DNA from: an uncultured Alphaproteobacteria bacterium
GTDB taxonomy: Bacteria; Pseudomonadota; Alphaproteobacteria; Rhodobacterales; Rhodobacteraceae
Length of the DNA stretch: 64,000 nt
Direction of reading: 5' to 3'
NCBI GenBank assembly: GCA_902537215.1
Contig: CACBAM010000001.1
Coordinates: forward strand, 121,100-185,099
Part shown: piece by piece, positions 358 through 31,019 of the stretch
Layout of the letters: each line of letters starts with the position of its first letter
Numbering within the stretch: position 1 is the first letter of the stretch
Position numbers and translations under genes: made by a program
The notes under the pieces: generated by a model
What the model saw: the letters and a program-made list of their open reading frames with translations, nothing else
The model's database searches: none
What the model was told of the DNA's origin: nothing

Positions 358-412
358 TAGCCAAAATTTTTATCTGTTCTGGTTTTTAGATTTAGATGAA
401 AATCCCGGCAAA

Positions 413-440: not shown

Positions 441-522
441 TATTACTTTTAATCAGTATACCAATTTTTTTTATTATGTTCTAAGCAATTGAGAGAAGTA
501 ACTGAGATTAATAGCACAAATA

Positions 523-903: not shown

Positions 904-1060
904 AAATCCCATTGAAGATTGTTTGAAAAATAATACTATTGGATTCTAAACGATTACCTAGAAATGTTATTTGCGGGAAGAATGGATCTAACAAAAGGAG
1001 CTCTAACGCTTCAGGTTGTTCGTTTCTATAAGTTCAAAAGGAAAAAACGAAGGGTTAAAA

Positions 1061-2824: not shown

Positions 2825-2853
2825 AGGCTTAAATAAACAAGTCTAAAAAAATT

Positions 2854-3801: not shown

Positions 3802-3814
3802 AAATAAATCATAA

Positions 3815-4081
3815 TTAAGTTTGTGGTTTTTTTTTGTTATATTTATCCAAAATGAGAGAGAAATTATTCAATTTTGATAAATAGGCAACAAGGGGGCCAC
3901 CTTTTTTTTCAGAGCACTCTTTATGCATAAAAAAACAATTTATACATAGGGTTAATGTTCTTTTTTTTCCAATATCTATTCTGGTTATTGGAATTGTTTC
4001 ATCATAATCAGGATGAGGATTTTCTGTAGCCTTACAAAAATCACATTTTGCTTCAGGTTGGTTATAAATAAAGTTTTGCAT
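3815..4081 (-). CDS. small Cys-rich (zinc-ribbon-like) hypothetical protein
   Basis: CDFC ... CINC ... C pattern. ATG at 4081 is preferred (MQNFIY). Tandem with a similar upstream gene. Confidence 0.4.
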   Translation of the reverse strand: MQNFIYNQPEAKCDFCKATENPHPDYDETIPITRIDIGKKRTLTLCINCFFMHKECSEKKGGPLVAYLSKLNNFSLILDKYNKKKPQT

Positions 4082-4083
4082 TT

Positions 4084-4329
4084 TTAGCTCTTCTCTAAGC
4101 ATCTGAAGTCAGCCGGAGGTCTATTTCCTCCAAAATCAATATGACAGATATTTTTCTCATGACGTTGGCACCAAACTTGAATGCCAATTCGAGTAAACCC
4201 GACATCTACCTTAACATAATCTCTAAGAGCTATGTCTGGGTTATCTAAATCTTTATACTCTTTGAAACAGGTTTCGCAGACAATCGGTTCTCTGACATTA
4301 TACAATAGTTTTTCATGATTATTGGTCAA
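4084..4329 (-). CDS. small Cys-rich (zinc-ribbon-like) hypothetical protein
   Basis: CETC ... CQRH ... CH pattern, 81 aa. Its stop lies 2 nt before the next gene's start. Confidence 0.4.
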   Translation of the reverse strand: MTNNHEKLLYNVREPIVCETCFKEYKDLDNPDIALRDYVKVDVGFTRIGIQVWCQRHEKNICHIDFGGNRPPADFRCLEKS

Positions 4330-4423
4330 AACATCTCCTTACGTATTTAAATAGATTTTAATAAGAATTTTCAAATCAATACATAATCTTAGTTTTAAAA
4401 ACTTAAAAATTAGTATTGGGAAA

Positions 4424-6037: not shown

Positions 6038-6110
6038 CTTCCAAAAACGGCTTTCTTTTATTAAACTTATTTTTAGATTATTTTAAAGCTTTAACTAAAA
6101 AGGTATGTAG

Positions 6111-8577: not shown

Positions 8578-8601
8578 CTTACCTAGAATACTGGAATGGC
8601 T

Positions 8602-15438: not shown

Positions 15439-15891
15439 ATGACGACACAAAATGAAACTAATTCGGCGCAAGTACCATGGGGTCAGCATTTAGTATTAGA
15501 CTTCAAAGATTGTCCCAAAGAGTTACTAGCAGATAAAGAAAATATACTAGATTGGAGTAAAGAGCTAGTACAGGCTATTGACATGATAGCTTACGGCGAA
15601 CCAATAATCGAGCATTTTGCCACGCATTCCCATGAGGCTGCAGGCTACACTTTACTTCAGATGATTGAAACTTCCAATATTGCCGCACATTTTGCTGAAA
15701 ATATCGGACAGGTGTATATTGATGTTTTCTCTTGTAAAGCATTTGACGTCGAAGTAGCGCTTGGAATTTGTAAAAAATATTTTAAGCCTACTCTAGCCAA
15801 TATGCATAAGTTGGACAGGGGGTTTCACAAGGCAAATCACGATACTGTAAGAAACTTTATGGAGGAGGAGCGAAATGAGCACGCGGCGTAA
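15439..15891 (+). CDS. divergent pyruvoyl S-adenosylmethionine-decarboxylase-fold paralogue (possible amino-acid decarboxylase)
   Basis: Aligns with the downstream SpeH: GQHLVLDF vs GRHILADF, IETSNIAAHFAEN vs LSESHISIHTWPE, DVFSCK vs DIFMCG. Good RBS (AAAGGAG) upstream. Confidence 0.6.
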   Translation: MTTQNETNSAQVPWGQHLVLDFKDCPKELLADKENILDWSKELVQAIDMIAYGEPIIEHFATHSHEAAGYTLLQMIETSNIAAHFAENIGQVYIDVFSCKAFDVEVALGICKKYFKPTLANMHKLDRGFHKANHDTVRNFMEEERNEHAA

Positions 15892-16786
15892 TTTCATAGA
15901 AGATGTTGAAAGCATTTATAACCTTAAAGGGAGTAAGGCGTTTCAGGGTTTTGAAATCAATAGAACCTTATTTGAAGGAAAGAGCGAATATCAAGATATT
16001 GCAATTTATGAGAACGATACACTTGGTCGTGTGCTAGCCATTGATGGTATTATTCAGATCACAGAGTGTGATGAATTTGTTTATCAAGAGATGATGACGC
16101 ATGTACCCCTTTTTTCGCATGAAAAACCAGAGCATGTTCTTATTATTGGCGGTGGTGATGGTGGGATTTTACGCGAAGTTCTTCGCCATAAAGGGATAAA
16201 GAGAGTTGTCATGGCAGAAATTGATCAGATGGTGATTGATGCCTGTGTTGAGTATATACCTAGCGTTAACAATGGAGGTAAAGTTTACCAAGATACCAGA
16301 GTGCAACTGATTGTTGGTGATGCTTTTGTGTATGTGAAAGAAACAGATTTAAAGTTCGATGCGGTTATAATTGACTCAACTGATCCTATAGGTCCTGGGG
16401 AGAAATTATTCAGCCATGAATTTTATAAAAACTTAGTTAAAATTCTTAAGGAAAATGCTGTGGTTTCGACCCAAGGAGGTATCCCTCAATTCCAGCCAGG
16501 TGAGGTTGGAGGCACTTTATCTTGCCTAAAGGAGGCAGGATTATGCGCTAGTTGTTATATTGCAGCGATCCCAACGTATTATGGCGGATACATGACACTA
16601 GGTTTTGGAGTTCTCAATTCTACTTGGTCACTACCCCTTTTAGAAACACTAAACAAACGTTTTAAAAGAGCATGTTTTAAAACTAGACATTACAGTCCAG
16701 AAATGCACTTGGCATCTTTTGTTCTTCCTCCATGGATCCGAGATGACATTAATAAAAGACCCAAGAAAGAAGAAGAGGCAGCATAA
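15875..16786 (+). CDS. speE: spermidine synthase (aminopropyltransferase)
   Basis: LIIGGGDGGILREVLRH, AEIDQMVID, DAVIIDSTDPIGPGEKLF. Confidence 0.9.
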   Translation: MSTRRNFIEDVESIYNLKGSKAFQGFEINRTLFEGKSEYQDIAIYENDTLGRVLAIDGIIQITECDEFVYQEMMTHVPLFSHEKPEHVLIIGGGDGGILREVLRHKGIKRVVMAEIDQMVIDACVEYIPSVNNGGKVYQDTRVQLIVGDAFVYVKETDLKFDAVIIDSTDPIGPGEKLFSHEFYKNLVKILKENAVVSTQGGIPQFQPGEVGGTLSCLKEAGLCASCYIAAIPTYYGGYMTLGFGVLNSTWSLPLLETLNKRFKRACFKTRHYSPEMHLASFVLPPWIRDDINKRPKKEEEAA

Positions 16787-16787
16787 A

Positions 16788-17201
16788 ATGAACCATCTCG
16801 ATAGCGATTATTTCGTAACATGTTCAAAAACCGGTGATCAATTTGCAGGAAGGCACATACTTGCTGATTTTTGGGATGTGGAACGAATGGGTGACTTAGA
16901 TTTTATAAAAGAAACAATAGAAGAAAGTGCTCGCAAGGCTGGCGCGATAATTCTGCATTCTTACTATCATCCTTTTGGTGAAGGTATGGGCGTAAGCGGT
17001 GTAACAGTTTTATCTGAAAGTCACATAAGTATACATACTTGGCCTGAACGTAATTTTGCTTCACTTGATATTTTCATGTGTGGGAATTGTGATCCGCGGA
17101 ATGCATTGGACTATTTACAAGAGATATTGAACCCATCTTCAGTCGATCAAAGCCTGAACCACAGAGGAGTGATTCCTGCAGTTGCGCGAATGTACAAGTG
17201 A
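16788..17201 (+). CDS. speH: S-adenosylmethionine decarboxylase proenzyme, class 1 (SpeH type)
   Basis: Canonical self-processing motif VLSESHISIHTWPE and DIFMCG. ATG at 16788 lies 2 nt after the speE stop and is preferred over the in-speE start at 16719. Confidence 0.85.
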   Translation: MNHLDSDYFVTCSKTGDQFAGRHILADFWDVERMGDLDFIKETIEESARKAGAIILHSYYHPFGEGMGVSGVTVLSESHISIHTWPERNFASLDIFMCGNCDPRNALDYLQEILNPSSVDQSLNHRGVIPAVARMYK

Positions 17202-17267: not shown

Positions 17268-17424
17268 TGGCTGGGACGGCAGGTTTCGAACCTACGGTGC
17301 ATTTGATCAAAACGCGTGGATAATGTTATGAGGAGTTATAAGGTTTCTAATAACCCTTTAAAATCATCCTTTTACTGTGATGCCTACTCTGAGTTAATAG
17401 GAGAGTTATGAAAAATGTTGTCAA
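17268..17424 (-). repeat. unit U1: strongly diverged tRNA-Gln 3'-half copy plus arm (outermost)
   Basis: TGGCTGGGACGGCAGGTTTCGAACCTACGGTGCATTTGATCAAAACGCG, followed by an arm with GTTATGAGGAGTTATAAGG ... CCCTTTAAAAT ... TGTTGTCAA. Confidence 0.75.
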
Positions 17425-17474
17425 AAAATTAACTAAAAAGAAATAAGTGTATTCATTTTTGCTTTATTACTTTA

Positions 17475-18860
17475 TTACTTTGTAATTATTGATGTTTCCA
17501 ATGCGTCGATGTAGTGAGTCCTCCAAATATTAATATTAAAAGAATGTAATTGATCAAAAGCATTGAGCCATCTCCTCAAGCGTTCCTTTTTAGGCATTTT
17601 TAGAGCATAATTCAATGCATTTGCTACTCCCTCCGGATCATGAGGGTTCACAATTAATGCGTCTGGTAATTCTTCTGCTGCGCCTGCAAATCTTGATAAA
17701 ATTAGCACTCCTGGATCACTCGCGCTCTGAGCTGCTATATATTCCTTTGCCACCAAATTCATTCCATCTCTTAGTGGTGTTACAAGTCCAATTCTGCTAT
17801 TTCTAAAAAATCCCATAAGACTTTTTTGCTGGAATCCTTTGTTGAGATACCTTATTGGCGTCCAATCAAAGTCACCATACGCACTATTTATTTTTCCAGC
17901 ACTAAGCTCTAATTTTTTTCTTATTTCTTTATATTGAAAAACAGAACCTCTTGAGGTAGGGGCTATTTGAAGCAAAGTTGTTGATCTGATGTGTTCACTA
18001 TGATTTTTTAGAAGATGGTTATACGCTGCGAATCTAAGCTCAAGTCCCTTCGAATAGTCTAGCCTATCGACGCCAATAATTAGTTTGTCCGTTTTAATAC
18101 TTTTTAGCAGTCTTTTCACCTGAGGAGAGTTATCAGTCTCTTCTGATATTCTTGTAACTTTGTTCGTATCTATAGATATTGGAAAATGTTTTACCTTAGA
18201 CTTTTTACCTAAAGCAAATATTGATCCATCTGGTTCAACTGATCCTCCTAACTCACTGATGATATAATCTAAAAAGGTAAGTACATGTTTCTTAGTTTGA
18301 AAGCCTATCAAGTCAAACTCTAAGAGTGCATCAACAAGTTCTCGATGATCAGGTAATGCAGTCAAAATTTCTTTTGATGGCCATGGTATATGTAAAAAGA
18401 AGCCTATTTTTTGTGTACATTTTAGCTTTCTCAACTCTCTAGCCATCAATAAAAAATGATAATCATGAACCCATATTAAATCTTCATTATTGAGAAGTTT
18501 TTTGATCTTTAAGGAAAATGACTCGTTAACGCTCTTATAACTCTCAAACTTTAATTTGGAATAATCTACTAAGTCCAATCTGTAGTGAAAAATAGGCCAC
18601 AGTACTTCGTTACAATATCCATTATAGTAATTTTCGTAATCTTTTTTGGTTAAATCAACAATGGCATAAGTTATTCCTTCATCCTTTTTTACATTTAGTT
18701 TGACGTCTTCATTTGTAGTAACTCTTCCACTCCAACCAAACCAAAGACCGCTTGTCTCCTGCAACGTATCATATAATGCAACTGCAAGTCCGCCAGCTGC
18801 CTCAGGTTTCTTTTCGTTGGGAAGCATGACCCTATTAGAAATAACGACTACTCTACTCAT
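17475..18860 (-). CDS. otsA: alpha,alpha-trehalose-phosphate synthase (GT20)
   Basis: VVISNRV, GGLAVAL, LWFGWSG, VHDYHFLL. 461 aa. Confidence 0.9.
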   Translation of the reverse strand: MSRVVVISNRVMLPNEKKPEAAGGLAVALYDTLQETSGLWFGWSGRVTTNEDVKLNVKKDEGITYAIVDLTKKDYENYYNGYCNEVLWPIFHYRLDLVDYSKLKFESYKSVNESFSLKIKKLLNNEDLIWVHDYHFLLMARELRKLKCTQKIGFFLHIPWPSKEILTALPDHRELVDALLEFDLIGFQTKKHVLTFLDYIISELGGSVEPDGSIFALGKKSKVKHFPISIDTNKVTRISEETDNSPQVKRLLKSIKTDKLIIGVDRLDYSKGLELRFAAYNHLLKNHSEHIRSTTLLQIAPTSRGSVFQYKEIRKKLELSAGKINSAYGDFDWTPIRYLNKGFQQKSLMGFFRNSRIGLVTPLRDGMNLVAKEYIAAQSASDPGVLILSRFAGAAEELPDALIVNPHDPEGVANALNYALKMPKKERLRRWLNAFDQLHSFNINIWRTHYIDALETSIITK

Positions 18861-18875
18861 AACTCTGCATTTTAT

Positions 18876-19703
18876 TTACCTAGATTTTAGAAGTTGCTTC
18901 ATTACTTCGTGAACGGATTTAACATTAGGTAAAAAGAAGTTGGCCTTACTTCTTTTATGATTTCCAACACGAACTGACCAGCCACCTTTCTTGTTGACAG
19001 TTTCAAAACCATCCTCATCGGTTTCATCATCACCGATAAAAATAGGTCTCCGTTTTATAAAAGGTTTAGTTCTCATAAAATATGAAATTGCTGTTCCTTT
19101 ATTGTGGCTTAGGGGTTTAACTTCCAAAACTTCCTTTCCTTTTAGTAAAGTTAAACTACGGTCACGTTTCGTGAGCTCCATTATAATTCTATCGATTTCT
19201 TTCCTGTCGATTGTTGAATTCCGAAAATGAATAGTTAAACTTGAACCCTTATTTTCAATCTCAATATTTTTTTTTCCATTAAGTAATTCTTCAATTTTAT
19301 GGGCAATTCTCTTTATGTTTCCAGTATTGGCCTGGTACTCCTTAATTCGGAGTGCATCTCTCAATTGTGCTCCGTGGTTCCCAGCAAAAGAAATTTTATT
19401 TTTGTCGAAAAGCCTATCTAGGTCATCTAAAGTTCTGCCACTTATAAGGCCTAACGCACCTTGAAGTCTATTACGGATGGTGTGCAGTTTTTTCTGCAAT
19501 CTAAAACAAGGTTTTATCAAGCTTGGACTATTCTCAATCTCATAGAGAGTGCCATCAACGTCTAGGAATAGAGCAACTTGTTGACAATCTTTCGGAAGTA
19601 AATTTACAGAGAATGGTGACGACACGTTTAAGGGTTCGTTTATTTGTTTAAAAAGGTGTAATCTATAAGCCTTATGGATACACGCAGTTGATCTAGCACT
19701 CAA
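18876..19703 (-). CDS. otsB: trehalose-6-phosphate phosphatase (HAD)
   Basis: LFLDVDGTL (HAD motif I), ISGRTLDDL, GDDETDEDGF. Lies immediately upstream of otsA. The start is uncertain (TTG). Confidence 0.8.
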   Translation of the reverse strand: MSARSTACIHKAYRLHLFKQINEPLNVSSPFSVNLLPKDCQQVALFLDVDGTLYEIENSPSLIKPCFRLQKKLHTIRNRLQGALGLISGRTLDDLDRLFDKNKISFAGNHGAQLRDALRIKEYQANTGNIKRIAHKIEELLNGKKNIEIENKGSSLTIHFRNSTIDRKEIDRIIMELTKRDRSLTLLKGKEVLEVKPLSHNKGTAISYFMRTKPFIKRRPIFIGDDETDEDGFETVNKKGGWSVRVGNHKRSKANFFLPNVKSVHEVMKQLLKSR

Positions 19704-19829
19704 AAAGCAAAGAAATGTAAAATAAGCAAGTCATATTTAGAGTATTTACAAAATTTATTTCTTGCAATAATTACGTTACGTAAACCTTATATTTTATCCA
19801 TTGGTGTATATCAATGGAAGTGATTTAAC

Positions 19830-19974
19830 GGTTAGCTTCTCAATTTTCAGCAATGGTACATTAGATAAAACCTGTATATTTTGTTATCAGGTCTTTTATA
19901 ACCCTTTAAAATAGTTCTTATCCTTCTCATATTTCTTATGTGTTATCGAGAAAATCACAAAAGCTATTGTCAAA
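19830..19974 (-). repeat. unit U2: nearly erased tRNA part plus well-preserved arm
   Basis: GGTACATTAGATAAAACCTG resembles GGTACACGGGATCAAAACCCG. The arm shares a 62-nt identical block with U3. Confidence 0.7.
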
Positions 19975-20060
19975 TCGACTTTTTAGTCTATCTCGATTTC
20001 TGTAACTAGAGGGTTTTGAGACATCGCCTCAGAAATAAGATTAAAAATTTCCTCTAAATA

Positions 20061-21569
20061 ATGATAAAAAAGATGGATTTAAAAATACTGTTTAAAAACG
20101 TCGCCGCATATATTGTCTTGGTGAAGAAATGTAAATTTATCGCAGCTATTTTTGCTGTTTATTTAAGTGTAGCTGAAAACAATCTTGCAGCTAATGCGCA
20201 GTTTTTTCAAAACATTACCGATAAAATAGAAAATAACGTACCGAGATTATCTTATGGCGTGGCCGTAACAGATTTTAACGATGATGGAAAAATGGAGTTT
20301 ATAGTTACAGGGTTTCGGTATCCTAATCTCGCACTGAGCTATGAGAATGGTTCATATACAAATATTAATTCTAGTAGACTATTTGCTGATGAAAAAAGGG
20401 CATCGATTGGAGTTGTTGCTTGTGATGTAGATCAGGATGGATATGAAGAAATTTATTTCTTGAATACCGACACTTATAGTGGAACGAAAAAATATTCAGA
20501 TCGTCTAATAGATGCGGACGAAACGATTTACGATATTTTCAGTTTTAAAAAAAATCAGGCAAACTTGAATCTTACGGCCGGTAGGTCGGTGGCTTGCGTT
20601 GATAGACATGGCAACGGTAACTATGGAATTTATGTCTCCAACTATGGGGGTCCAACAAGATTTTACGAGCTGAAAAGCGATATTATCCAAGATATCGCAC
20701 CTTCGCTTGGAATAAATGCTACGACCGGTGGTCGTGCTGTAGTAGCAGGGCATATTCTATCAGGAAAAGTCGATATTTTTGCTGCGAATGAACGGGGACC
20801 TAACTTTTTACTGATGAACAAGGGCGGCACATACACTGACAAAGCTTTGGAGTACGGTATCGATGATACTCTCCAAAATGGGAGAGGAACGGCTCTATCA
20901 GATATTGGTTATAATGGGAGCTTAGACCTTATTACAGGAAATTGGAATGGTTTTCATAGAATATACACTCATGCAAACAACACCTTCGTCGATACAGCGT
21001 CTTTAAATTTTAGACAACCTTCTAAAATAAGAACGGTTATATCCGCTGATTTTGATAACGATGGTTTTGATGAGATATTTTTGAACAATATCGGTCAACC
21101 AAATAAATTATTTAGAGTTCTAGATAACAATAAACTCGAACAGTTGGAATTGACGAATGCTCTAGAAAAGAAAGGTCTGGGCACTGGTGGAGCAGTAGCC
21201 GATTTAAACGGTGACGGAATTTTGGAGCTACTGATCGCTCATGGTGAAAGTGCTCCTGAACCATTAAGCCTTTTTTCAGCTAACGTTAAGGACGATTTTC
21301 AATATTTAAGAATAGAACCTAGAAACTCTTACGATGCACCAGCAAGAGGTGCTACCGTAACACTTAAGACAAATTTCAGAACCCATGCTAAAACTATAGA
21401 TGCAGGCTCTGGCTATTTATGCCAGATGGAACCAGTAGCTCATTTTGGAATCCGTAAAAATGAAGAGATTGAGTACATTCAGATAAATTGGACTGACGGT
21501 CAAAAATCAAAATACAAAATTGAAAAGCTGAACCATCAATATGTTTTCAACCAAGGTAAAACAAATTGA
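20061..21569 (+). CDS. secreted FG-GAP/VCBS repeat protein with ASPIC/UnbV-like C-terminus (CRTAC1 family)
   Basis: Repeated D.D.DG motifs (TDFNDDGKME, CDVDQDGYEE, ADFDNDGFDE, ADLNGDGILE). C-terminal GATVTLKT...DAGSGYLCQMEPVAHFGI. N-terminal signal or anchor. Confidence 0.75.
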   Translation: MIKKMDLKILFKNVAAYIVLVKKCKFIAAIFAVYLSVAENNLAANAQFFQNITDKIENNVPRLSYGVAVTDFNDDGKMEFIVTGFRYPNLALSYENGSYTNINSSRLFADEKRASIGVVACDVDQDGYEEIYFLNTDTYSGTKKYSDRLIDADETIYDIFSFKKNQANLNLTAGRSVACVDRHGNGNYGIYVSNYGGPTRFYELKSDIIQDIAPSLGINATTGGRAVVAGHILSGKVDIFAANERGPNFLLMNKGGTYTDKALEYGIDDTLQNGRGTALSDIGYNGSLDLITGNWNGFHRIYTHANNTFVDTASLNFRQPSKIRTVISADFDNDGFDEIFLNNIGQPNKLFRVLDNNKLEQLELTNALEKKGLGTGGAVADLNGDGILELLIAHGESAPEPLSLFSANVKDDFQYLRIEPRNSYDAPARGATVTLKTNFRTHAKTIDAGSGYLCQMEPVAHFGIRKNEEIEYIQINWTDGQKSKYKIEKLNHQYVFNQGKTN

Positions 21570-21570
21570 T

Positions 21571-22278
21571 ATGACCAGGTATATTTCCACACTTTTTGTC
21601 ATGTGCTTAATAATCCCCCCAATAAGCTTAGGAGAGTCTCGAAGTTCTGATAGTTTAAAATTGACACGTTATTATGAAGAGTTACGAGCAGATTGGGGGA
21701 AAATATTTCCGAACAAAAACAGAAATGCTGGCGGTGCTCTATTTTTTAAATATATTTTAGATAATTCAAATTCTAGAGATGAGTTTTTTGAGAAGAATAA
21801 GATGTATTGTAGTGTCTCTGGGTCACTTGTACGGCCAGGTTCTCAACCTGAATTTGTTTCTGTCAGAGGCCACGATGAAGAATTAATTTGCGGCTCGCTT
21901 TACAGATGTTGTTGGCCCTGCTCTTGTGATGTGATGAAATTTGTTCAGGTGCAGGCCCTCGAAAAAACATTTGATGATAAGACGGAATTAATCAACGTAT
22001 TAACAATCAAAAACCCATGTGAAAAACCAGATTTTCCTGAAGAGGTCGATAGAGAGTCCATTTGTGTGGGCACCTCACTAAATAAAAAACGAGTGACTGA
22101 AATAAATGGAAGGCTTGTAGTTGGAGTGCTATTCGAAAGCAAAATCTGTTCACCTAAGGACATTGAAAAGATAAATAGAGAAGTTATAACAGGAAGCTAC
22201 TGTCCACTTAGAAATAATACACCACTCAAAGAGGTCAGGGGAGGTATGGGGGACATTTTCATAAAAATGGCTAATTAG
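21571..22278 (+). CDS. secreted Cys-rich hypothetical protein (weak YHS-like segment)
   Basis: Signal peptide MTRYISTLFVMCLIIPPISLG. YCSVSGSLV...CGSLYRCCWPCSCDV. ATG lies 1 nt after the upstream stop. Confidence 0.45.
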   Translation: MTRYISTLFVMCLIIPPISLGESRSSDSLKLTRYYEELRADWGKIFPNKNRNAGGALFFKYILDNSNSRDEFFEKNKMYCSVSGSLVRPGSQPEFVSVRGHDEELICGSLYRCCWPCSCDVMKFVQVQALEKTFDDKTELINVLTIKNPCEKPDFPEEVDRESICVGTSLNKKRVTEINGRLVVGVLFESKICSPKDIEKINREVITGSYCPLRNNTPLKEVRGGMGDIFIKMAN

Positions 22279-22336
22279 ATTTTTATTTGATTTTGCTTTG
22301 AAAATTGATCACTTACCGTGCATGTTTAGCAATAAT

Positions 22337-22494
22337 TGGCTGGACTGATAGGATAGCAACCTACGGTACACGGGATCAAAACCCGTAGATATTGTTATCA
22401 GAAGTTATCAGGTTTCCTATGACCCTTTAAAATAGTTCTTATCCTTCTCATATTTCTTATGTGTTATCGAGAAAATCACAAAAACTGTTGTCAA
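22337..22494 (-). repeat. unit U3: tRNA-Gln 3'-half copy (6 mismatches) plus arm
   Basis: TGGCTGGACTGATAGGATAGCAACCTACGGTACACGGGATCAAAACCCG followed by the arm. Confidence 0.85.
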
Positions 22495-22577
22495 TAATCT
22501 TTAATTAATGGGATTATTCCTAAGGAAAGGTATAGAGATCACCTTGTTGAAACTTTTTTGAAGAAGATAGGTCAAAT

Positions 22578-23003
22578 ATGAAACATGAGAAAATTACATC
22601 AGAAAATGTAACGGAAAAATACGAGTATATTTTTGCAGATTGGGTAAAAGAATTAAACATTGAGTTTTGTGAGGTTCGAGAGCGTTATGTGAAAGCAAAG
22701 TTTAAAAATAAAGCTAAGTTTAGATTTTTTTCCGGAGCAGTTTGCGGTCAAGTTTTAATGGCTGTAGTAGATACGGTAATGTCAGTGACGATGGGAACAA
22801 CCGAAACTGCTGTTAGAGGTACATTATCTCAAAATAATAATTTTGTTAAACCTGCTACAGCAGATTTTTTTTATGTGGAGTGCTCTCTACAAAAAACTGG
22901 AAAATCTATAGCAATTGGAGAAACAAAAATATTTTCAGGCGACAACAAAGACTTGATCTGTCACTCTACCTCAATTTATCCAGTTAATAGTTTAAAAACA
23001 TAA
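22578..23003 (+). CDS. hotdog-fold (PaaI-like) thioesterase family protein
   Basis: 141 aa. The pattern G.V.GQVLMAVVDTVMS fits PaaI/DUF4442-type hotdog proteins. Confidence 0.5.
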   Translation: MKHEKITSENVTEKYEYIFADWVKELNIEFCEVRERYVKAKFKNKAKFRFFSGAVCGQVLMAVVDTVMSVTMGTTETAVRGTLSQNNNFVKPATADFFYVECSLQKTGKSIAIGETKIFSGDNKDLICHSTSIYPVNSLKT

Positions 23004-23034
23004 TGAATTTCTTTAAAAGCACCTAGTAGATAAT

Positions 23035-23185
23035 GTCGCAGGTTTCAAACCTACGGCACACGGAATCAAAAACCCCAAAATAATATTAAGAGGAGTTATT
23101 AGTTTTCTCACGATCTTCTAACATTGTTCTCATCCTTTTCATGCTCCTATTTAGTTATCAGGAAAATCATGAAAACTGTTATCAA
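23035..23185 (-). repeat. unit U4: diverged tRNA-Gln 3'-half copy plus arm
   Basis: GTCGCAGGTTTCAAACCTACGGCACACGGAATCAAAAACCCC, then an arm ending GTTATCAGGAAAATCATGAAAACTGTTATCAA. It overlaps the stop codon of the 23182 gene. Confidence 0.75.
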
Positions 23186-24000
23186 ATTTTCTCAGCGGTA
23201 ACTATTCGGTAAGGAAAAGGCATATTAACAATTCCGTCAATCTCGAACTCTTTAAATCTCTCAATAAGCTTTGACTCAATGCTAGGTATCTTTTTGGGAT
23301 CTTGAGAGTCTAACAAGCCTTTAGATCTTACCGCAACTTCTCTGTACATTTGTGGAATTGAATTTGCAGGCACTCCCAAATTAAAGACATTATTTACAGC
23401 TTCGAAATTTGTCATTACAAGACCTTGAGAAGAAAGCCGTTCTGATGCTCGGTGCTGATCACTAAAATCATCGATGGGAGGTGCTGTTGGCAATCCTACA
23501 TCATAGCTTCCTAACTCACCTATTGTTTCAGCAAGCGTTCCAAAAAACGGAGATTCTTGGACTGGGGCCCAAACAGTGAATACAAAACGTCCATTTTGTT
23601 TCAATACGCGTCTCACTTCTTTTATCGCTCTGTCGGGGTGAGCAAAATGTAACATTCCAAAAGTGCATAAAATTTTTGTAAAGCTACTGTCTCCATACTG
23701 AAGGTTTTCAGCATCAGCTTGTTCAAAATTGAGATTTGGATTTTGCTTTCGTGCCTCAAGCACCATAGCTTCAGCAAAATCAGTACCCACTACATTTTGT
23801 GTTATTTTTGCTATTTCATTTGTTCCATAACCTGGTCCAGATGCAAGCTCCAATACAATATCATCTCTTGAAAGGGTCAAAGCATTTACTGCTTTCGGTA
23901 TGATATTCTTGGCATTTGCACTAGCCCATTTATCATAGGTAGATGCCCTCTCTTCCCAACCATTCTTTTCAAAGTTTTTGAAATCTTCAAATTCAGTCAT
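23182..24000 (-). CDS. class I SAM-dependent methyltransferase
   Basis: VLELASGPGYGTNEIA (motif I) with the Methyltransf_11-like layout. 272 aa. Confidence 0.8.
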   Translation of the reverse strand: MTEFEDFKNFEKNGWEERASTYDKWASANAKNIIPKAVNALTLSRDDIVLELASGPGYGTNEIAKITQNVVGTDFAEAMVLEARKQNPNLNFEQADAENLQYGDSSFTKILCTFGMLHFAHPDRAIKEVRRVLKQNGRFVFTVWAPVQESPFFGTLAETIGELGSYDVGLPTAPPIDDFSDQHRASERLSSQGLVMTNFEAVNNVFNLGVPANSIPQMYREVAVRSKGLLDSQDPKKIPSIESKLIERFKEFEIDGIVNMPFPYRIVTAEKI

Positions 24001-24180
24001 TTTTATTCAACGGCTTTTTAATGCTTTTACGTTTTTTGATTAGCGAAGCAGACTATGTCAAAATAACACTTCAAAAGGCAGAGTCAAAAAAAAATGTTTA
24101 TCTAGTATGCCTAAAAGATTCTTGTCAAAAGGTCCAAAGATATCAACCATAAAATTATTGGGTTTGAGCAATTTAGAAAA

Positions 24181-24350
24181 TGGCTGGGGTGGTAGGATTC
24201 GAACCTACGGTACACGGGATCAAAACCCGTGGATATTGTTATCAGGAGTTATCAAAATTCGCATAACCCTTTAAAATAGTTCTTATCCTTCTCATGCTTC
24301 TTATGCGTTATCAGGAAAATCACGAAAACTGTTGTCAAAAGTGTTGTCAA
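24181..24350 (-). repeat. unit U5: perfect 49-nt tRNA-Gln 3' copy plus 121-nt arm
   Basis: 24181..24229 is identical to 30945..30993. The arm carries GTTATCAGG, GTTATCAAA, GTTATCAGG, GTTGTCAA and GTTGTCAA. Confidence 0.9.
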
Positions 24351-24494
24351 CAACTAGCATTTCCGTAATAGTTTCTAAAGTGAACTAAATCAAGGAACAG
24401 TCGATGGCGTTCTTAAATTTATTTTCTATAGATATAAACTACCTGATCTTGTTTCGCTGGTCAGGCATGCTCTCGATTATACAGATTGTCGCCC

Positions 24495-25856
24495 ATGAGT
24501 AAGTCAAGTGACATTGCTGACCTATTTGACCATCTGGAATTAAACGATGCTTTCCTTGCCGCGCAATACCCTGCTGATATCGAGGATTTTTGTAAAGTTT
24601 ATCCAGAAAAAGTTATTGGGTTAGCCCTAGTTGGCCCAAATGAAACAAATAGCTCAGCTTTTGAAATTATTGCTGAAAGAATATTGATGATAAATAGTGA
24701 GCATGGACCTACCAAGACGGCAGCAAATGATTTTAAAAAGGATTTAAAAAAGGCAAGTACCTATGAAATAAAAAACTATGAAATACTTCCGTGGTCAGAT
24801 ATTTCCATAGATCACCCCAAACAATTATTCGAAAGTCTTTCGAACTTTTTTGGATCTATGGGTCAAAAAAAAAATGCATTTGCAAAATCCAAAGTGGGCG
24901 GAAAATTCAAAGACACTTACTTTTCAATTGAAGGATGTGGACCTCCTCTAATTCTTTTCCCATTCACTCTGTCGGCAGCACAATGGAAACCTATAATACC
25001 ATTACTGGCAGAAAAATTTACAGTAATCACTTTAAGTGGGCCTAATTTAGGTTTTATTCCAGTTTTGGAAAGTCGTGCAGCGCTACCAACTTATCAAACT
25101 ATGATTTCATCATTGGTATCAATAATGAATATTACACCAAATGGAAAAATTTTAGAATTGGGTTGTGGGACTGGTGCTCTATGTCGTCAAGTTTTAAACT
25201 TAAGACCAGACCTTTCTGTGACCGGGGTTGATATAAATACCTACTTGTTGAATGGAGCTATCCAAATCGCTGAAAATGAAGATTTGTATGTTAATAATTA
25301 TATTGATGAGAAAGAATTTACAGTGAAGAATTTTTCTGAAGCTGGTGAATTAAACTTCGCTTACAGTGACGCCATCGATATACCCTTTCCTGATAACTTT
25401 TTTGATGCTGTTTATTCTGTAACTGTCTTGGAGGAATGTGATGCAGATAAAGCAATAAAAGAAATAGTGAGGGTAGTCAAACCAGGAGGACCTATAGGAA
25501 TAATTGTAAGAGCTATTGATATGCCCCAGTGGTTTAACTTCGATATAACTGGCGAATTAGAGCATAAGTTAAATATTCCCCTTCAATTAAAAAGTACTTA
25601 TGGCATTGCTGATAAATCACTTTATGACCAGATGCGCAAAAACGGACTTCATGAATCGATTAACTTTCCAAGCATGGTAGCTGTGCCCAGAGGCAAAAAC
25701 AAAAATTTATTTGAGTGGTTTCTGAGACGTACGCGACAAACTTTGAATGAAGATGAGAAAATTGAACTGGATGATGAGCTGAAAAAAATTTCTGATAAAT
25801 CTAACCTGATATACTCTATGCCATTTCACTGCTCAGTAGGTTGGAAGCAATATTAA
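24495..25856 (+). CDS. two-domain protein: degenerate alpha/beta-hydrolase-like N-domain plus class I SAM methyltransferase domain
   Basis: ILELGCGTGALCRQVL and VVKPGGPIG methyltransferase motifs. The N-terminal half has GCGPPLILFPF...FTVITLSGPNLG. The start is either ATG 24495 or TTG 24486. Confidence 0.65.
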   Translation: MSKSSDIADLFDHLELNDAFLAAQYPADIEDFCKVYPEKVIGLALVGPNETNSSAFEIIAERILMINSEHGPTKTAANDFKKDLKKASTYEIKNYEILPWSDISIDHPKQLFESLSNFFGSMGQKKNAFAKSKVGGKFKDTYFSIEGCGPPLILFPFTLSAAQWKPIIPLLAEKFTVITLSGPNLGFIPVLESRAALPTYQTMISSLVSIMNITPNGKILELGCGTGALCRQVLNLRPDLSVTGVDINTYLLNGAIQIAENEDLYVNNYIDEKEFTVKNFSEAGELNFAYSDAIDIPFPDNFFDAVYSVTVLEECDADKAIKEIVRVVKPGGPIGIIVRAIDMPQWFNFDITGELEHKLNIPLQLKSTYGIADKSLYDQMRKNGLHESINFPSMVAVPRGKNKNLFEWFLRRTRQTLNEDEKIELDDELKKISDKSNLIYSMPFHCSVGWKQY

Positions 25857-25909
25857 TGATACGCTTATAAAGACAAAAGCTACAAAACCACAAGGCTAAT
25901 TTTAGTAAT

Positions 25910-25940
25910 TGGCTGGGGTGGTGGGACTAGAACCTAAGGC
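25910..25940 (-). repeat. unit U6: truncated tRNA-Gln 3'-end remnant (no arm)
   Basis: TGGCTGGGGTGGTGGGACTAGAACCTAAGG matches the acceptor and T-arm part only. Confidence 0.7.
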
Positions 25941-25962
25941 TCTATAATGATAACTCTTGAAA

Positions 25963-27699
25963 TTATTTTTCAAAGAATGGTTTATATTCCCAATGAGTTT
26001 CAAAGAGATCTGGATCAGAGTAACCCTCAAAATTTTGAAATGAATAACCTGTTGGGCCTGTATAGTAAATAGTCCACTCTTTAAGCCATGCGTTCAACGG
26101 AGAAATCTTTTTAAACTGAAGTCCTCCCATGTTTAGAAAAATCCAGCCACCATGTTTATCCTGCGTAGGAGTATCGCAGTACATATCCATCAAACCATCG
26201 TTATTAACATCAATTAACTTGGTGCTACCGCAATATGAATTCCATCTATTACTTTCAGACTTAATATCTTTCTTCCAGGCTTTTACAGAAGTCCAGCTCT
26301 TTTTTCCTGAAATCATTGGAATTTGATCTGCGATGGTAAATTTACCCTCCCCATTATTAGACCAAATAGTGTGAGTTCCTCCAGCGTAAAGTGGGCCTAC
26401 GGTGGTTCCCGCTATATCTAGATCCCCATCTCCATCAAAGTCCCATGATACTAGATCTACGATGTGTGATAGTAAATATCCCGATCCATAAATGTCATAC
26501 GCTGGTGGAATTTTTTTCCAACCTGTTTTAAAACTTCCTTTACCATCCCCAAACAGAACTACGGTATTATTGTGTTTCTTACTACTATTATGTGAATACA
26601 ATTTTTTTTCAAACCAACCTCCACTAGCTATTAAATCAACTATTCCATCACCGTTGTAATCACCGCTCGTCACGGCAAAAGCAAATTGGTCAGCACACTG
26701 TTTTACAGTAAAGTTCCCAGCACCATCATTAAAATGGCAATATATCTTGCCCCCGCCTTTTGTATTTTCCCATTTAATATGGGGAGTTACCACATCTAAG
26801 TCCCCATCATGATCAATATCATTCACCGTAACGCCATGTGAAAAACCTTGGTATAGCCCTGTTTTTTCATCTACGAAAGCTCCCTTTTCCTTCACATGCT
26901 TCCAACCTTTGTCATTAGAAATGAAAACTATATCTGCTCCCCCATGATAAAACTTTCCTTTGTAAGTGTGGCCAAAAGCACTTGGGCAAAATACGTCATC
27001 TATTCCGTCATTGTTAAAATCGGCTAGTACCGGTCTCTGACAATTTCTACCCATAGAGGTATTATGCTCAAAAGCATTGATAACGGTTTCGTCTCGTTCA
27101 TTAATACTTACTGAAAATGCAGTAAAATTTAAGTAACGGTCATTACCACTTTTTAGTTCGCACAACGGGACACCTATAGATGTGAGGGTATAGCCATTAG
27201 GACAAACTTCCATCTCATAAGACATGAGTAAATCTTGGCGACCGTCATTATTCAAATTTCCGAATGCCATATGATTTATGTAGAATACCTCTCTATTTTC
27301 AGATGCATTTTTTCTTTGAAATAGATCAGAGGGTAAAAAATATGGTGAGTTTGAGTCCGGTATTATTTTCGATTGATTTGAAATAAAGTTTCCAAAAAAG
27401 TGTACCTTTAATTTATTTTTCGTTTCCTCAATTTTTGGAATTCCTAAACTTATCACTGAAGTTTTTAACTCTATCAATTCATTATCGTCAATGGTTCCAT
27501 CGAACACTTTGTTATTGTCGGCATAATATTTATTTAATGCCTTTATTGTATTTTTTCCTTTTATCCCGTCTTCTGTTCCGGCTGCATAACCTAATTGATT
27601 GAGCATATATTGGCTACCTCGAACGTATGAATTAGAGTTCGCTGCCATGCTTTGAAAAAATATAAATAAGGCTATTACTAAAGTCTTGATAATTTTCAT
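25963..27699 (-). CDS. secreted peptidoglycan-binding-domain plus FG-GAP/VCBS repeat protein
   Basis: Signal peptide. PG_binding_1-like LNQLGYAAGTEDGIKGKNTIKAL. Repeats ADFNNDGIDD, NDIDHDGDLD, GDYNGDGIVD, WDFDGDGDLD, IDVNNDGLMD. Confidence 0.7.
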   Translation of the reverse strand: MKIIKTLVIALFIFFQSMAANSNSYVRGSQYMLNQLGYAAGTEDGIKGKNTIKALNKYYADNNKVFDGTIDDNELIELKTSVISLGIPKIEETKNKLKVHFFGNFISNQSKIIPDSNSPYFLPSDLFQRKNASENREVFYINHMAFGNLNNDGRQDLLMSYEMEVCPNGYTLTSIGVPLCELKSGNDRYLNFTAFSVSINERDETVINAFEHNTSMGRNCQRPVLADFNNDGIDDVFCPSAFGHTYKGKFYHGGADIVFISNDKGWKHVKEKGAFVDEKTGLYQGFSHGVTVNDIDHDGDLDVVTPHIKWENTKGGGKIYCHFNDGAGNFTVKQCADQFAFAVTSGDYNGDGIVDLIASGGWFEKKLYSHNSSKKHNNTVVLFGDGKGSFKTGWKKIPPAYDIYGSGYLLSHIVDLVSWDFDGDGDLDIAGTTVGPLYAGGTHTIWSNNGEGKFTIADQIPMISGKKSWTSVKAWKKDIKSESNRWNSYCGSTKLIDVNNDGLMDMYCDTPTQDKHGGWIFLNMGGLQFKKISPLNAWLKEWTIYYTGPTGYSFQNFEGYSDPDLFETHWEYKPFFEK

Positions 27700-27803
27700 C
27701 AGACGATTGCTCCTGGCGAAAAAAGTAGCTTAGAAATTTCTCTATGTAAATAGCAAGGCAGATATTGAAATATCAATCTTACCCTCACAGAAAAAAGTAT
27801 AAG

Positions 27804-27974
27804 TGGCTGGGGTGGTAGGATTCGAACCTACGGTACACGGGATCAAAACCCGTGGATATTGTTATCAGGAGTTATCAGGATTCTCATAAGACCTTTAAAA
27901 TAGTTCTTATGCTTCTCGTGCTTCTGATGCGTTATCAGGAAAATCACGAAAAGTGTTGTCAAAATTGTTGTCAA
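27804..27974 (-). repeat. unit U7: perfect 49-nt tRNA-Gln 3' copy plus 122-nt arm
   Basis: 27804..27852 is identical to 30945..30993. GTTATCA occurs at 27861, 27871 and 27931; GTTGTCA at 27955 and 27967. Confidence 0.9.
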
Positions 27975-27979
27975 TATTC

Positions 27980-29374
27980 CTATTTTTTTCTGACGTTACG
28001 CCTGGAATTTTGTTTGCTTCTTTTCTTTTTTTTTCGATCATTTTTCATTTGAACAAGTTGTTCTTCGCCAAGACTTTCTACCTCCTCTATAGGAGGTAGT
28101 TTTCCTTTGAAATTTTCAATTAGCGCTAAGGCCAAATTTTCATTAGAGAACCGAGTTAATAGCTCATTAGCAAACTTAAGTTCACTAGAACTATTTTTTT
28201 TGTTTCTTGAAAGGTAGTTTATGATCTTTTCATTATCTTTATGTTCTATTTCTTCTTGTGAAAGAAATTTATTAATAACCGGTCTTACCTTTGCAGAATT
28301 GATCAATTTTTCATATTTTCTTTTCTCGCCAGGTGAACAAAAAAGAATACTTCGACCCTTGTTCCCAGCTCTCCCGGTTCGCCCACTTCTGTGTATTAAG
28401 GTTTCTGGATTATAAGGGAGTTCAGCATGTATAACTATATCCAGGTTAACCAGGTCAATACCTCTTGCTGCTACGTCTGTCGCAACACATATCTTACACC
28501 TACCATTTTTTATGGATTGTAATGCCTTGAACCTCTCTGATTGATTTAATGCACCAGATAAGGAGACAACAGAAAAACCTCTATTTAATATTCTAGAAGA
28601 GATATGCGTTACAGCATTCCTAGTAGAGCAAAAAATAATAATAGTCTTATCATCATGAAATCGGAGAAAGTTGAATATTGCATTTTCAATATCATGTTTT
28701 TTTACTAAATATGTTTCATAAGAAATATCAGTGTGGGCTTTGCCAAGACTAGTAGCTTCAATTCTGACTGCGTTTTTTTGGTACTTTGATGCTAATGACA
28801 ATATTTTTTTTGGGAGAGTTGCCGAAAACATAAGTACCCTCTTATTTGCGGGACTTTGATTTACAATCATATCTAAGTCTTGTTTAAAGCCTAAATCAAG
28901 CATTTCATCAGCTTCATCAAGGACAAGCGATCTTAAATAATTTAAGTGGAAAGTTTTCCGACGTATATGGTCATTAATCCTTCCTGGTGTTCCTATTAAA
29001 AGATTAACTCCTTTAGAAATATTTTTTCTTTCTTTTTTTATATCCATCCCACCGATCGCTGTTGAGATTCTGATTTCAGTTTTAGAAAACAGCCATTCTA
29101 ACTCATTAAAAACCTGTAAAGCTAATTCTCGTGTGGGGGTAACGACTAGGGTTTTAAGTTTGTTATCTGAATCCAGAATTTCTTTAAGTCCAGCAACCGA
29201 TATTGACAACCCATAAGCAAGTGTTTTGCCAGAGCCTGTTTGGGAGCTCACCAGAAGATCTTTATCATTGTTACCAGGATCAAGCACTAAGCTTTGAACT
29301 GTTGTTAGTTTGTCATACCCTTTTTCTTTTATTGAGAATTGTAATTCTTCAGGAATAGATTTTGTTTCAAGCAT
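27980..29374 (-). CDS. DEAD-box ATP-dependent RNA helicase
   Basis: SQTGSGKT (motif I), DEAD, SAT, HRSGRTGRAG. Lys/Arg-rich C-terminal tail. Confidence 0.9.
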   Translation of the reverse strand: MLETKSIPEELQFSIKEKGYDKLTTVQSLVLDPGNNDKDLLVSSQTGSGKTLAYGLSISVAGLKEILDSDNKLKTLVVTPTRELALQVFNELEWLFSKTEIRISTAIGGMDIKKERKNISKGVNLLIGTPGRINDHIRRKTFHLNYLRSLVLDEADEMLDLGFKQDLDMIVNQSPANKRVLMFSATLPKKILSLASKYQKNAVRIEATSLGKAHTDISYETYLVKKHDIENAIFNFLRFHDDKTIIIFCSTRNAVTHISSRILNRGFSVVSLSGALNQSERFKALQSIKNGRCKICVATDVAARGIDLVNLDIVIHAELPYNPETLIHRSGRTGRAGNKGRSILFCSPGEKRKYEKLINSAKVRPVINKFLSQEEIEHKDNEKIINYLSRNKKNSSSELKFANELLTRFSNENLALALIENFKGKLPPIEEVESLGEEQLVQMKNDRKKKKRSKQNSRRNVRKK

Positions 29375-29432
29375 TCGCTCAATCTATAGAATAATAAAAA
29401 TAAAGATATAGTTAAGATTTTTAAATTTCGTC

Positions 29433-30185
29433 TCATCTAATCTTTTGATCAAAAGAAAGATTGCCACCTGCCCAAATTGGTAAATTCTCTTTATCATTGA
29501 GCCATTTTTCTTCATCAGGGGTATTAGCTCTTCCAAACTCTGAATTTCTTTGCGGGTAACGCCCAAATTTTTCCAAAACCTGCTTATGTTGGTCTACCGC
29601 CTTCTTATTTCTCCCTTCAAATAGAGTGAAATTAGGATAAGCACCAATTGCCATGTCAATTATTTCGCATGCACGAACAAGGTCGACTATTTCTTCTGAA
29701 TGAGCCAAAGCCCAGGGAAGTAAATATAGTAGTGCTGGAGGCAATTTTAAAGTTTGTTGGACTTTCTCTTTACTAACTAGGTCTCGAACGAGCTCGCGTC
29801 CTATGTAGTCATACGAAAAAGCTTCAGCCGTCCCTCGAAAACATGAGCGAGATAGTTGGTCTGCTAGCAATACTCTAGCAACCTGGCCTTCAAGGGTAAA
29901 CCATTCATCTTCAATTAGGGTTTGTGGATCAGCTTTCAATTCGCGAATAACAGATGAAAATGGCTTGCAAATATCGTCTAAAGCGGTTCCACTCCTAAAC
30001 CATATGCCTAATAGTGGTTCCACTGTTTCATCGTAAAAAAGGCTTTTTCTATCATTAGCATTATTAATATCGCAGCCACACATATAATTCAAAACACTAC
30101 TTGGAGAACGAGGATTAGTAAGAGCTTTCAGGACTGCGGGTTTTCTACTAAATTGCTCAGGGGTAAGATCGTCTGGTAACATCAT
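29433..30185 (-). CDS. DUF924 family protein
   Basis: LADQLSRSCFRG and FGRYPQRNSEFGRANTPDEEKWL are typical of DUF924. Confidence 0.7.
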   Translation of the reverse strand: MMLPDDLTPEQFSRKPAVLKALTNPRSPSSVLNYMCGCDINNANDRKSLFYDETVEPLLGIWFRSGTALDDICKPFSSVIRELKADPQTLIEDEWFTLEGQVARVLLADQLSRSCFRGTAEAFSYDYIGRELVRDLVSKEKVQQTLKLPPALLYLLPWALAHSEEIVDLVRACEIIDMAIGAYPNFTLFEGRNKKAVDQHKQVLEKFGRYPQRNSEFGRANTPDEEKWLNDKENLPIWAGGNLSFDQKIR

Positions 30186-30374
30186 TTAAAAAAGAAGCAA
30201 AGAATGATTTGGTTGGGGAAAGTTTCAATGATCGTAAAATATTAGAGAAAACAATTGAAGAGATATGTAGGAAAAAGGGGTGGAGTTTTAGGTCGTAAAA
30301 ATGTTCAAATTTTTTTCAACCACAGAGTTGAAAGCGTTGTAAAAATCTATGGAGTGGCATTTGCAAAAATTGGT

Positions 30375-30719
30375 TTACGATTTAAAATAGGTTTTATCGA
30401 TCTCTTCATCTTCAGGAAGTAGAGCCGAAGTGAAACGTTCTGTCTCCATCACCATTGAATTAAAAAAACGGTCCATACCCCAAGCATCTAGCTGTTTATA
30501 AACATGGTCTTCGCTAACAGCTTGGAAATGAGTGCAATAAAAGTTGCTTTTACTACCTTGCCATACTTGAATTACAGTCGCAAATTCGCCAACAGTAGTT
30601 TTAGCCCATTCTCCGTGGGTTGCTACATCTGCATATGTTTCCCTAAAATACGATTTATACGCTTTTGCCGCTTCATCATTGTGAGCGTCATGAATAGCCA
30701 TAAAATTTTTAATCATCAA
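30375..30719 (-). CDS. hypothetical protein (114 aa)
   Basis: Intact ORF (TTG-ATG start). No recognisable family. Confidence 0.4.
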   Translation of the reverse strand: MMIKNFMAIHDAHNDEAAKAYKSYFRETYADVATHGEWAKTTVGEFATVIQVWQGSKSNFYCTHFQAVSEDHVYKQLDAWGMDRFFNSMVMETERFTSALLPEDEEIDKTYFKS

Positions 30720-30829
30720 ATGGATCCTTGTTAAATATTAGCTTCTTATACGATATATTAAATGAAACCATTCATAACTTTAAGTTTACTTTCCTAAATT
30801 GGAAGCCAAAATCTCCCACTGAAAGTAAA

Positions 30830-30849
30830 TGTTGTCAAAGTGTTGTCAA
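30830..30849 (-). repeat. orphan arm terminus (TGTTGTCAAAGTGTTGTCAA) without a tRNA part
   Basis: Matches the distal end of the U5 and U7 arms. Lies 95 nt from the 3' end of the intact tRNA-Gln. Confidence 0.6.
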
Positions 30850-30944
30850 AAACGGATTATTCTTCAAACTATAGATTTTGATCCGGTAGATAGCTAATCA
30901 GTAATATCCAAGAAAACATAGTATACTTTAGCTAATTTTAGGAG

Positions 30945-31019
30945 TGGCTGGGGTGGTAGGATTCGAACCTACGGTACACGGGATCAAAACCCGCTGCCTT
31001 ACCGCTTGGCTACACCCCA
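30945..31019 (-). tRNA. tRNA-Gln (anticodon UUG)
   Basis: The 75-nt reverse complement folds as a cloverleaf. Acceptor TGGGGTG/CACCCCA has U1:A72, typical of bacterial tRNA-Gln. Other elements: D-arm GCC/GGC, anticodon arm GCGGG-TTTTGAT-CCCGT, T-arm GTAGG-TTCGAAT-CCTAC, discriminator G and encoded CCA. Confidence 0.9.

Follow-up and report, generated by a model that had tools for sequence, protein, structure and literature searches.

The window analyzed here is a 64,000-nt stretch of contig CACBAM010000001.1, from an uncultured alphaproteobacterium, with a G+C content of ~36% throughout. Its tRNA-Gln(ttg) gene is flanked on one side by kdsA and a Mrp/Mnh antiporter operon and on the other by a 14-kb array stretch. 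The last 49 nt of the tRNA gene form a repeated core: seven copies of the tRNA's last ~49 nt lie between 17257 and 30944, all in tRNA orientation, and six of the seven carry an adjoining arm (Table 1); the core beside arm U2 is almost erased. The cargo comes in blocks of one or two genes, namely OtsA/OtsB, a 245-aa protein with an FG-GAP/ASPIC protein, a thioesterase, a methyltransferase (272 aa), a second methyltransferase (456 aa), an FG-GAP protein (578 aa), and finally a DEAD helicase with DUF924 and a 114-aa ORF. Pfam searches of the island ORFs and of the ORFs nearest both tRNAs in the window found no integrase; the remaining window ORFs, at 1-8600 and 34000-56800, look like core genes by synteny with three related loci (L001 to L003). 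Arm U1 marks the island boundary, beside AdoMet decarboxylase and spermidine synthase genes. At this distal edge (window 15439-17201) the spermidine synthase gene sits between two AdoMet decarboxylase paralogues, and the island of L003 ends at the same genes.

Table 1. Coordinates of the tRNA-Gln(ttg) gene, core fragments, arms, P′ pair, and cargo in the window
Feature	Position	Strand	Evidence
Core of U1	17268-17316		
Arm U1, most distal and degenerate	17317..17431	+	80.5 bits
Cargo between arms	17432..30944		Pfam: seven blocks, no recombinase
Arm U2, lacking its first ~18 nt	19883..19977	+	79.4 bits
Core of U3	22337-22386		
Arm U3, lacking the second GTTGTCAA	22387..22498	+	104.1 bits
Core of U4, degenerate	~23027-23079		
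Arm U4, degenerate	23080..23188	+	84.4 bits
Core of U5, tRNA-Gln 3′ fragment	24181..24229	-	
Arm U5, intact	24230..24350	+	122.8 bits
tRNA-Gln fragment, truncated and armless, between FG-GAP and methyltransferase cassettes	25910..25942	-	
Core of U7, 49-nt tRNA-Gln 3′ fragment	27804..27852	-	Weak Rfam tRNA match
Arm U7, nearly intact, probable P arm of a fossil attR	27853..27974	+	117.9 bits
P′-arm pair GTTGTCAAAGTGTTGTCAA, starts 114 and 103 nt from tRNA 3′ end	30831..30849	+	
tRNA-Gln(ttg) gene, predicted integration target (attL side)	30945..31019	-	ARAGORN; Rfam tRNA, 67.8 bits

A sequence-only reading of this DNA had described, beside each untruncated tRNA fragment, a conserved noncoding arm of ~120 nt with five GTTRTCA heptamers in one orientation, and the description held up when it was recomputed. 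nhmmer places six ~121-nt noncoding arms on the plus strand, at the starts given in Table 1. The heptamer starts proposed for U7 are exact (GTTATCA at 27861, 27871, and 27931; GTTGTCA at 27955 and 27967), U5 likewise has five GTTRTCA heptamers in the same orientation (starts 24238, 24248, 24307, 24331, and 24343), and the layout is kept in U1 to U4 with point changes (GTTATGA and GTTATAA in U1, GTTATCG in U2 and U3). GTTRTCA occurs 41 times in the window versus 16.15 ± 3.7 times in shuffled sequence, a count that none of 100 shuffles reached; by arithmetic from the shuffle counts, ~0.015 heptamers are expected per 122 nt of one strand versus 5 observed. U1 to U5 have stop codons in all six frames, as expected of noncoding DNA, and U7 is the sole arm with open frames (two). 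The arm abuts the tRNA-Gln(ttg) 3′ copy exactly where identity to the tRNA stops, on the 5′ side of the anticodon stem. A complete arm contains three copies of GTTATCAGG, two of them 10 nt apart beside the core and the third farther out, and a pair of GTTGTCAA copies whose starts are 103 and 115 nt away from the core.

A second GTTGTCAA pair lies across the core, at -112/-101 in L020, L003, and L063 and at -114/-103 in the window (30831/30842), where it belongs to the only P′ arm present. Repeats are found on both core sides, with GTTGTCAA pairs in P and P′ and GTTATCAGG on the P side alone. The P′ pair adjoins 4 of 13 full tRNA genes versus 3 of 111 tRNA fragments; since 108 of the 111 fragments lack it, most units are not complete attL/attR pairs. 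When the P′ arms of L020, L029, and L098 are aligned with those of the window lineage, they share almost nothing except the GTTGTCAA pair, which keeps the same position. Judged from these alignments, the P′ pair is the sole real phylogenetic footprint that we found.

The arm extends well beyond the window, as a model search of other genomes bore out: it returned 136 matches, 95 of them full length, across 70 loci and 0.51 Mb, counts that are upper bounds since some loci overlap. These sequences come from marine metagenomes and from single-cell genomes and MAGs of relatives. Among species-representative genomes, a pattern scan picked out 62 loci; ~35 of them are true arms, and nearly all of these belong to uncultured Alphaproteobacteria and Rhodobacterales represented by GORG single-cell genomes or MAGs. 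A metagenome scan gave 36 loci, all 36 true arms and all marine. In all ~60 copies with a readable flank, the neighbor is a tRNA-Gln fragment. Marine assemblies from Tara, ENA, and NCBI, one of them named a Paracoccaceae MAG, encode proteins 85 to 90% identical to KdsA. L001 to L003 are syntenic loci with the same kdsA-tRNA-Gln junction, different cassette sets, and the same arm between cassettes. One contig with at least five arms, PBGQ01000036.1 (L005, L016, and L021), is titled "Rickettsiales bacterium SP3058," and its tRNA-Gln segment is 97% identical to the window's; either this MAG is misclassified or the contig is mis-binned, probably.

Across 61 distinct full-length arm sequences, per-column identity is 80 to 99% over the whole arm and drops sharply past the second GTTGTCAA, and the arm is therefore a discrete module. 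Conservation is tightest in GGAAAATCAC and in the first TGTTGTCAA. The heptamers themselves are not singled out, and in this part the sequence-only reading is not borne out: heptamer columns average 0.905 and other arm columns 0.895 (61 distinct copies, p = 0.95). Sites and spacers do not differ in the P arm, and between divergent lineages the P′ arms share only the pair. Some arms are shortened (L001:18556-18666, L080:1954-2064, L089:3933-4035, and L068:178-277): the stretch between GTTATCAGG repeats is deleted, so that the core is followed almost at once by GTTATCAGGAAAATCAC...GTTGTCAA x2, and such deletions appear to have arisen more than once. Elsewhere, right halves of arms (model positions ~44-121) stand without a core and with unrelated upstream sequence (L081:2572-2649, L083:105-175, L097:1247-1315, L101:588-657, and L054:1432-1505).

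A PHROG scan of 72 representative neighboring proteins flagged an integrase once, in L020 (single-cell genome AG-895-K23, contig CABZEG010000008.1), whose kdsA-tRNA segment is 92% identical to the window's. There an intact 6.4-kb element adjoins tRNA-Gln. Outward from the tRNA it comprises the GTTGTCAA pair, a 73-aa ORF, a 147-aa ORF, two HTH_36 genes, an HTH_17 gene for an excisionase-like protein (37.4 bits), a 209-aa gene, the integrase, a flagellin-like cargo gene, and an arm; the L020 sequence begins inside that arm, and the core beside it is outside the stretch covered. No primase or helicase gene accompanies the two HTH_36 genes in the element. The arm-type reading gains support from the arm-bearing element in L020, which encodes both a tyrosine integrase and an HTH_17 Xis-like protein. 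The flagellin-like cargo, 665 aa long, has flagellin domains at its N and C termini, separated by a long stretch of unrelated sequence (L020:133-2130, L075:766-3867, L081, and L088); integrase-less cassettes carry it as well as the integrase-bearing element.

The L020 tyrosine integrase (389 aa; PF00589, E = 3e-22) scores 21.8 bits against Arm-DNA-bind_4 and a 48%-identical relative scores 23.5 bits, around a cut-off of 22.3. An AlphaFold model of P0121, which is 95% identical to the L020 integrase, has a pLDDT of 89.8 and places three strands and a helix at residues 3-49, with the core-binding and catalytic domains after them. Foldseek with this model retrieved Tn1549 Int, and lambda Int over nearly its full length; by sequence, the nearest solved relatives are Tn1549 Int and an S. 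aureus integrase, with identities to solved relatives of only 14 to 20%. The predicted structure thus portrays a three-domain, lambda/Tn1549-like integrase with an N-terminal arm-binding fold. A phmmer comparison of lambda and P4 Int/Xis with 513 ORFs gave no match, the L020 integrase included, a negative that carries little weight because the PHROG and Pfam scans did find that integrase. In Tara metagenomes the same integrase type recurs at 94 to 95% identity, always with the 209-aa partner and with different downstream cargo.

The module of HTH_17 gene, 207- to 209-aa protein, and integrase is kept in relatives down to 48% identity. The gene for the 207- to 209-aa protein (L020:3370-3999 on the minus strand, L106:59-688, and L108:505-1128) overlaps the start of the integrase gene; the protein has no Pfam match and a Cys- and Lys-rich C terminus, and it may be an unrecognized recombinase partner. 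The 48%-identical integrase lies beside tRNA-Pro(tgg), where GTGTCAAATAG occurs twice in tandem, 12 nt apart, at -91/-79 from the tRNA end, with a second tandem repeat beyond the pair. On the opposite side of this tRNA is the C terminus of a different tyrosine integrase (L108:2913-3209, minus strand), and tRNA-Pro(tgg) therefore has recombinase genes on both sides. A 44%-identical integrase was found with HTH_36, AAA_25, and large helicase genes.

Our favored explanation, which we hold to be fairly probable, makes the arm the P arm in the attP of a small integrative element that targets tRNA-Gln(ttg) in marine Rhodobacteraceae of low GC content; that the arm derives from such an attP and has been kept at the distal edge of every insert is well supported. 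Element anatomy and comparison with relatives show an attP built from a P arm (121 nt), a 49-nt core that matches the tRNA exactly between the anticodon stem and CCA, and P′; integration would rebuild the tRNA and leave attR, made of the arm and the displaced tRNA fragment, at the insert's far end, and repeated events would stack cargo-arm-core units downstream of the tRNA. GTTGTCAA is likely an arm-type site of the integrase, whose N-terminal arm-binding domain would dock on the pairs ~100 to 115 nt out on both core sides. GTTATCAGG, present on the P side only with two copies beside the core, likely binds the HTH_17 excisionase-like protein or additional integrase protomers. In lambda, Xis sites occupy the position matching these P-side-only copies. 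The integrase link comes from one intact element in a relative and two short Tara contigs. The earlier suggestion that the heptamers are arm-type sites gains strong support from context (the tRNA core, the arm-binding integrase and Xis-like protein of L020, the P′ pair, and the similarly placed tandem pair beside tRNA-Pro), but the flat conservation gives no sign that the heptamers, and not other arm bases, are the contacts.

Repeats of this kind may also be iterons or operators for an element-encoded HTH protein (HTH_36, DnaD_N-like, or the 73-aa protein), the arm then acting in cis in replication or regulation of the excised circle and lying beside att by chance, as with crr of P4. Five repeats in one orientation within 120 nt would suit that role, as would a third GTTGTCA pair in L020 at 4750/4762, between the HTH_36 genes, a near-consensus promoter before a small ORF that the P′ pair overlaps, and the HTH_36, AAA_25, and helicase genes that accompany the 44%-identical integrase; in P4, the 120-bp repeat required in cis for replication has octamer iterons ~200 nt from the attP core. 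However, the GTTGTCAA pairs are nearly symmetrical about the core in the fashion of arm-type sites, arms persist in ~100 cassettes that have no rep-like gene, the HTH_36 assignment is weak and generic, and the DnaD_N match in L020 is weak; short of a formal search, no AT-rich unwinding element or DnaA box came to notice. We regard this explanation as improbable.

Still less can be said for the arm as a promoter module, which would fire from a minus-strand TTGACA into the tRNA fragment or from a plus-strand TTATCA-N17-TAAAAT into the cargo, and which we think very improbable. Four arms do contain the plus-strand TTATCA-N17/18-TAAAAT (9 of 12 positions), yet promoter-like sites are not enriched in the region (52 found versus 48.4 expected), and the cargo gene next to an arm points toward it in 22 gene families and away from it in 17. 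The minus-strand TTGACA promoter of the sequence-only reading survives in one place, the P′ copy of L020, where the pair forms TTGACA-N16-TATACT before the 73-aa ORF; the minus-strand promoter scan found none in any arm, and the P′ copy in the window has no good -10. With orientation unbiased and promoter sites not enriched, we rejected a cargo promoter as the main role. A known noncoding RNA was also rejected, Rfam giving only tRNA matches at gathering thresholds and at E ≤ 1. RNAalifold on 21 diverse arms paired no bases of the consensus on either strand, and single-sequence folding gave z-scores of -1.9 and -2.7, the latter with tRNA stems included. Nor did a phage or satellite origin stand: phage records matched the arm query through its tRNA-Gln part alone, and the sole IMG/VR match to the arm patterns and integrase, L004, is not an arm by nhmmer.

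Cassettes bounded by arms are 1 to 3 kb long and have no integrase. The distal ones (OtsBA; the 245-aa protein with FG-GAP) are common to several genomes and their arms and cores have decayed, a pattern consistent with insertions that enter at the tRNA end and decay neutrally thereafter; the U2 arm is orthologous to likewise degenerate copies in L002 and L003. Cassette order conflicts among genomes: a beta-lactamase-fold cassette is distal to FG-GAP in L002 and proximal in L055, and the DUF924-helicase cassette lies on one side of it in L027 and on the other in L049. Misassembly of single-cell genomes at the 170-nt repeats could account for some of these conflicts. Between species, cassettes are 93 to 97% identical and the flanking kdsA and Mnh genes 80 to 82%, and integrase-less cassettes have therefore crossed species boundaries recently. 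The 456-aa methyltransferase cassette (window 24351-25898) is 96.5 to 99% identical to its counterparts in L001, L014, and L094, despite an L001 kdsA only ~80% identical to the window's; read from these identities, it is a clear recent transfer of one cassette between species.

How integrase-free cassettes came about admits three possible routes: decay of whole elements, mobilization in trans by a driver, or RecA exchange via arm and core. Decay of whole elements is hard to square with the data because mobility-gene pseudogenes are absent: tblastn found no match to the L020 mobility proteins in the window and no remnants of them in the other arm loci (~0.5 Mb). A search for excised cassettes through circularly permuted contigs found none convincing. 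Most units of the array are free of mobility genes; they would be either fossil attR sites or cassettes that can still move, carried by a rare driver element with an integrase of its own or exchanged by RecA through the 170-nt repeats.

Taken further, exchange by homology would leave the arm no present sequence-specific role: arm plus core would be a 170-nt portable repeat that persists because the cassettes are young, and recombination on it would delete, shuffle, and import cassettes. Uniform conservation of arm and core with no heptamer footprint, their joint decay in old distal units, the conflicting cassette orders, the excess of cassette over kdsA/Mnh identity between species, and the deletions between GTTATCAGG repeats all agree with this. 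It leaves unexplained, though, why the arm exists and ends sharply after the second GTTGTCAA, why the GTTGTCAA pair is kept in otherwise divergent P′ arms, and why an arm-binding integrase is associated. As a complete account we find it unlikely; as a later stage of the same history it is compatible with an attP origin of the arm.

An attP arm of this kind has close parallels in the lambda/P4/Tn916 class. Shared features are a long noncoding arm beside a core that exactly matches the 3′ portion of a tRNA, tandem short direct repeats ~100 nt from the core on both sides, an integrase with arm-binding fold, core-binding, and catalytic domains, and a small HTH excisionase-like gene; the P4 record annotates tandem arm repeats that flank, on both sides, the core used by its tRNA-specific integrase. 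Here, by contrast, a tRNA-Gln gene of marine Rhodobacteraceae is the target, the repeats have new sequences, the sites are predicted, and most arm copies lie outside any functional element. The element belongs to a known class, and what is unusual is the cassette size, the attR-only units with a full arm, the lack of recombinase debris, and the shuffling and between-species transfer. We found no published description of the arm or of a tRNA-Gln element, within incomplete literature coverage.

Tandem accretion at one att site is known from CIMEs (PMC5704250), and the genomic-island arrays at ssrA of Dehalococcoides, which use a serine recombinase, have a 15-bp conserved motif beside each repeat (PMC3146451); array units without an integration module have been proposed to move with a neighbor (PMC5704250, PMC3146451). 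The array described here resembles both in its tandem units without integration genes, set at one RNA gene with repeats of its 3′ end between them and extra conserved bases beside each repeat, but its units are integron-sized, at 1 to 3 kb with one or two genes. As in CIMEs, integration and transfer genes are absent (Pfam on all island ORFs; no tblastn remnants). Unlike CIMEs, which retain both attL and attR, the units keep the full 121-nt arm and are attR-only, the P′ pair lying on the other side of just 3 of 111 fragments.

Integrons offer a further comparison, since they too have promoter-independent one- or two-gene cassettes with their own recombination site, an integrase located elsewhere, and variable order. 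Unlike integrons, the array has no IntI, attI, or Pc, its cassette genes occur in both orientations (22 versus 17 families), and its integrase has an arm-binding domain; unlike attC, its site is a tRNA fragment plus arm with no folded imperfect palindrome. A tRNA-anchored, integron-like system, in which half-site cassettes (121-nt P arm plus 49-nt core) are moved in trans by a driver, is a tentative proposal that we rate below an even chance. The driver would consist of the arm-binding integrase, the HTH_17 protein, and the 209-aa partner, and that it captures, excises, and re-inserts cassettes across species is equally conjectural. Were cassettes to move without an integrase of their own, the array would be a tRNA-based counterpart of the integron; otherwise, the arms would still serve as markers to delimit and date island insertions. 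Either outcome bears on how streamlined ocean bacteria without plasmids and conjugation gain and swap niche genes. The recombination site is now defined (49-nt tRNA-Gln core, 121-nt arm, and P′ pair), candidates for the integrase, Xis-like protein, and partner protein are named, and dozens of natural cassettes are at hand, carrying trehalose synthesis genes, FG-GAP surface proteins, methyltransferases, and a helicase.

In build, the islands resemble the tycheposon islands of Prochlorococcus, which also have streamlined marine hosts, grow downstream of a tRNA by repeated integration, scatter partial tRNAs through the island, and mostly hold cargo, with integrase carriers rare; integration at a tRNA 3′ end, partial tRNA repeats, and an island all occur here. 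The comparison concerns the build of the island. Tycheposons are further marked by a deep-branching clade of tyrosine recombinases and by a replication module (primase or helicase); the integrase here is three-domain, with Tn1549 and lambda Int as its nearest solved relatives. Elements similar to tycheposons have been reported in Alphaproteobacteria (bioRxiv 10.1101/2020.12.28.424599). Differences are that tRNA-Gln is absent from the seven Prochlorococcus sites, that the text of the preprint does not use the word "arm," and that fragmented integrases are reported there, with none found here (bioRxiv 10.1101/2020.12.28.424599). The window also contains a tRNA-Arg(tct) gene (59371-59447), whose neighboring ORFs include no integrase and which is directly followed by an EamA transporter gene; tRNA-Arg(tct) is a tycheposon integration site in Prochlorococcus.
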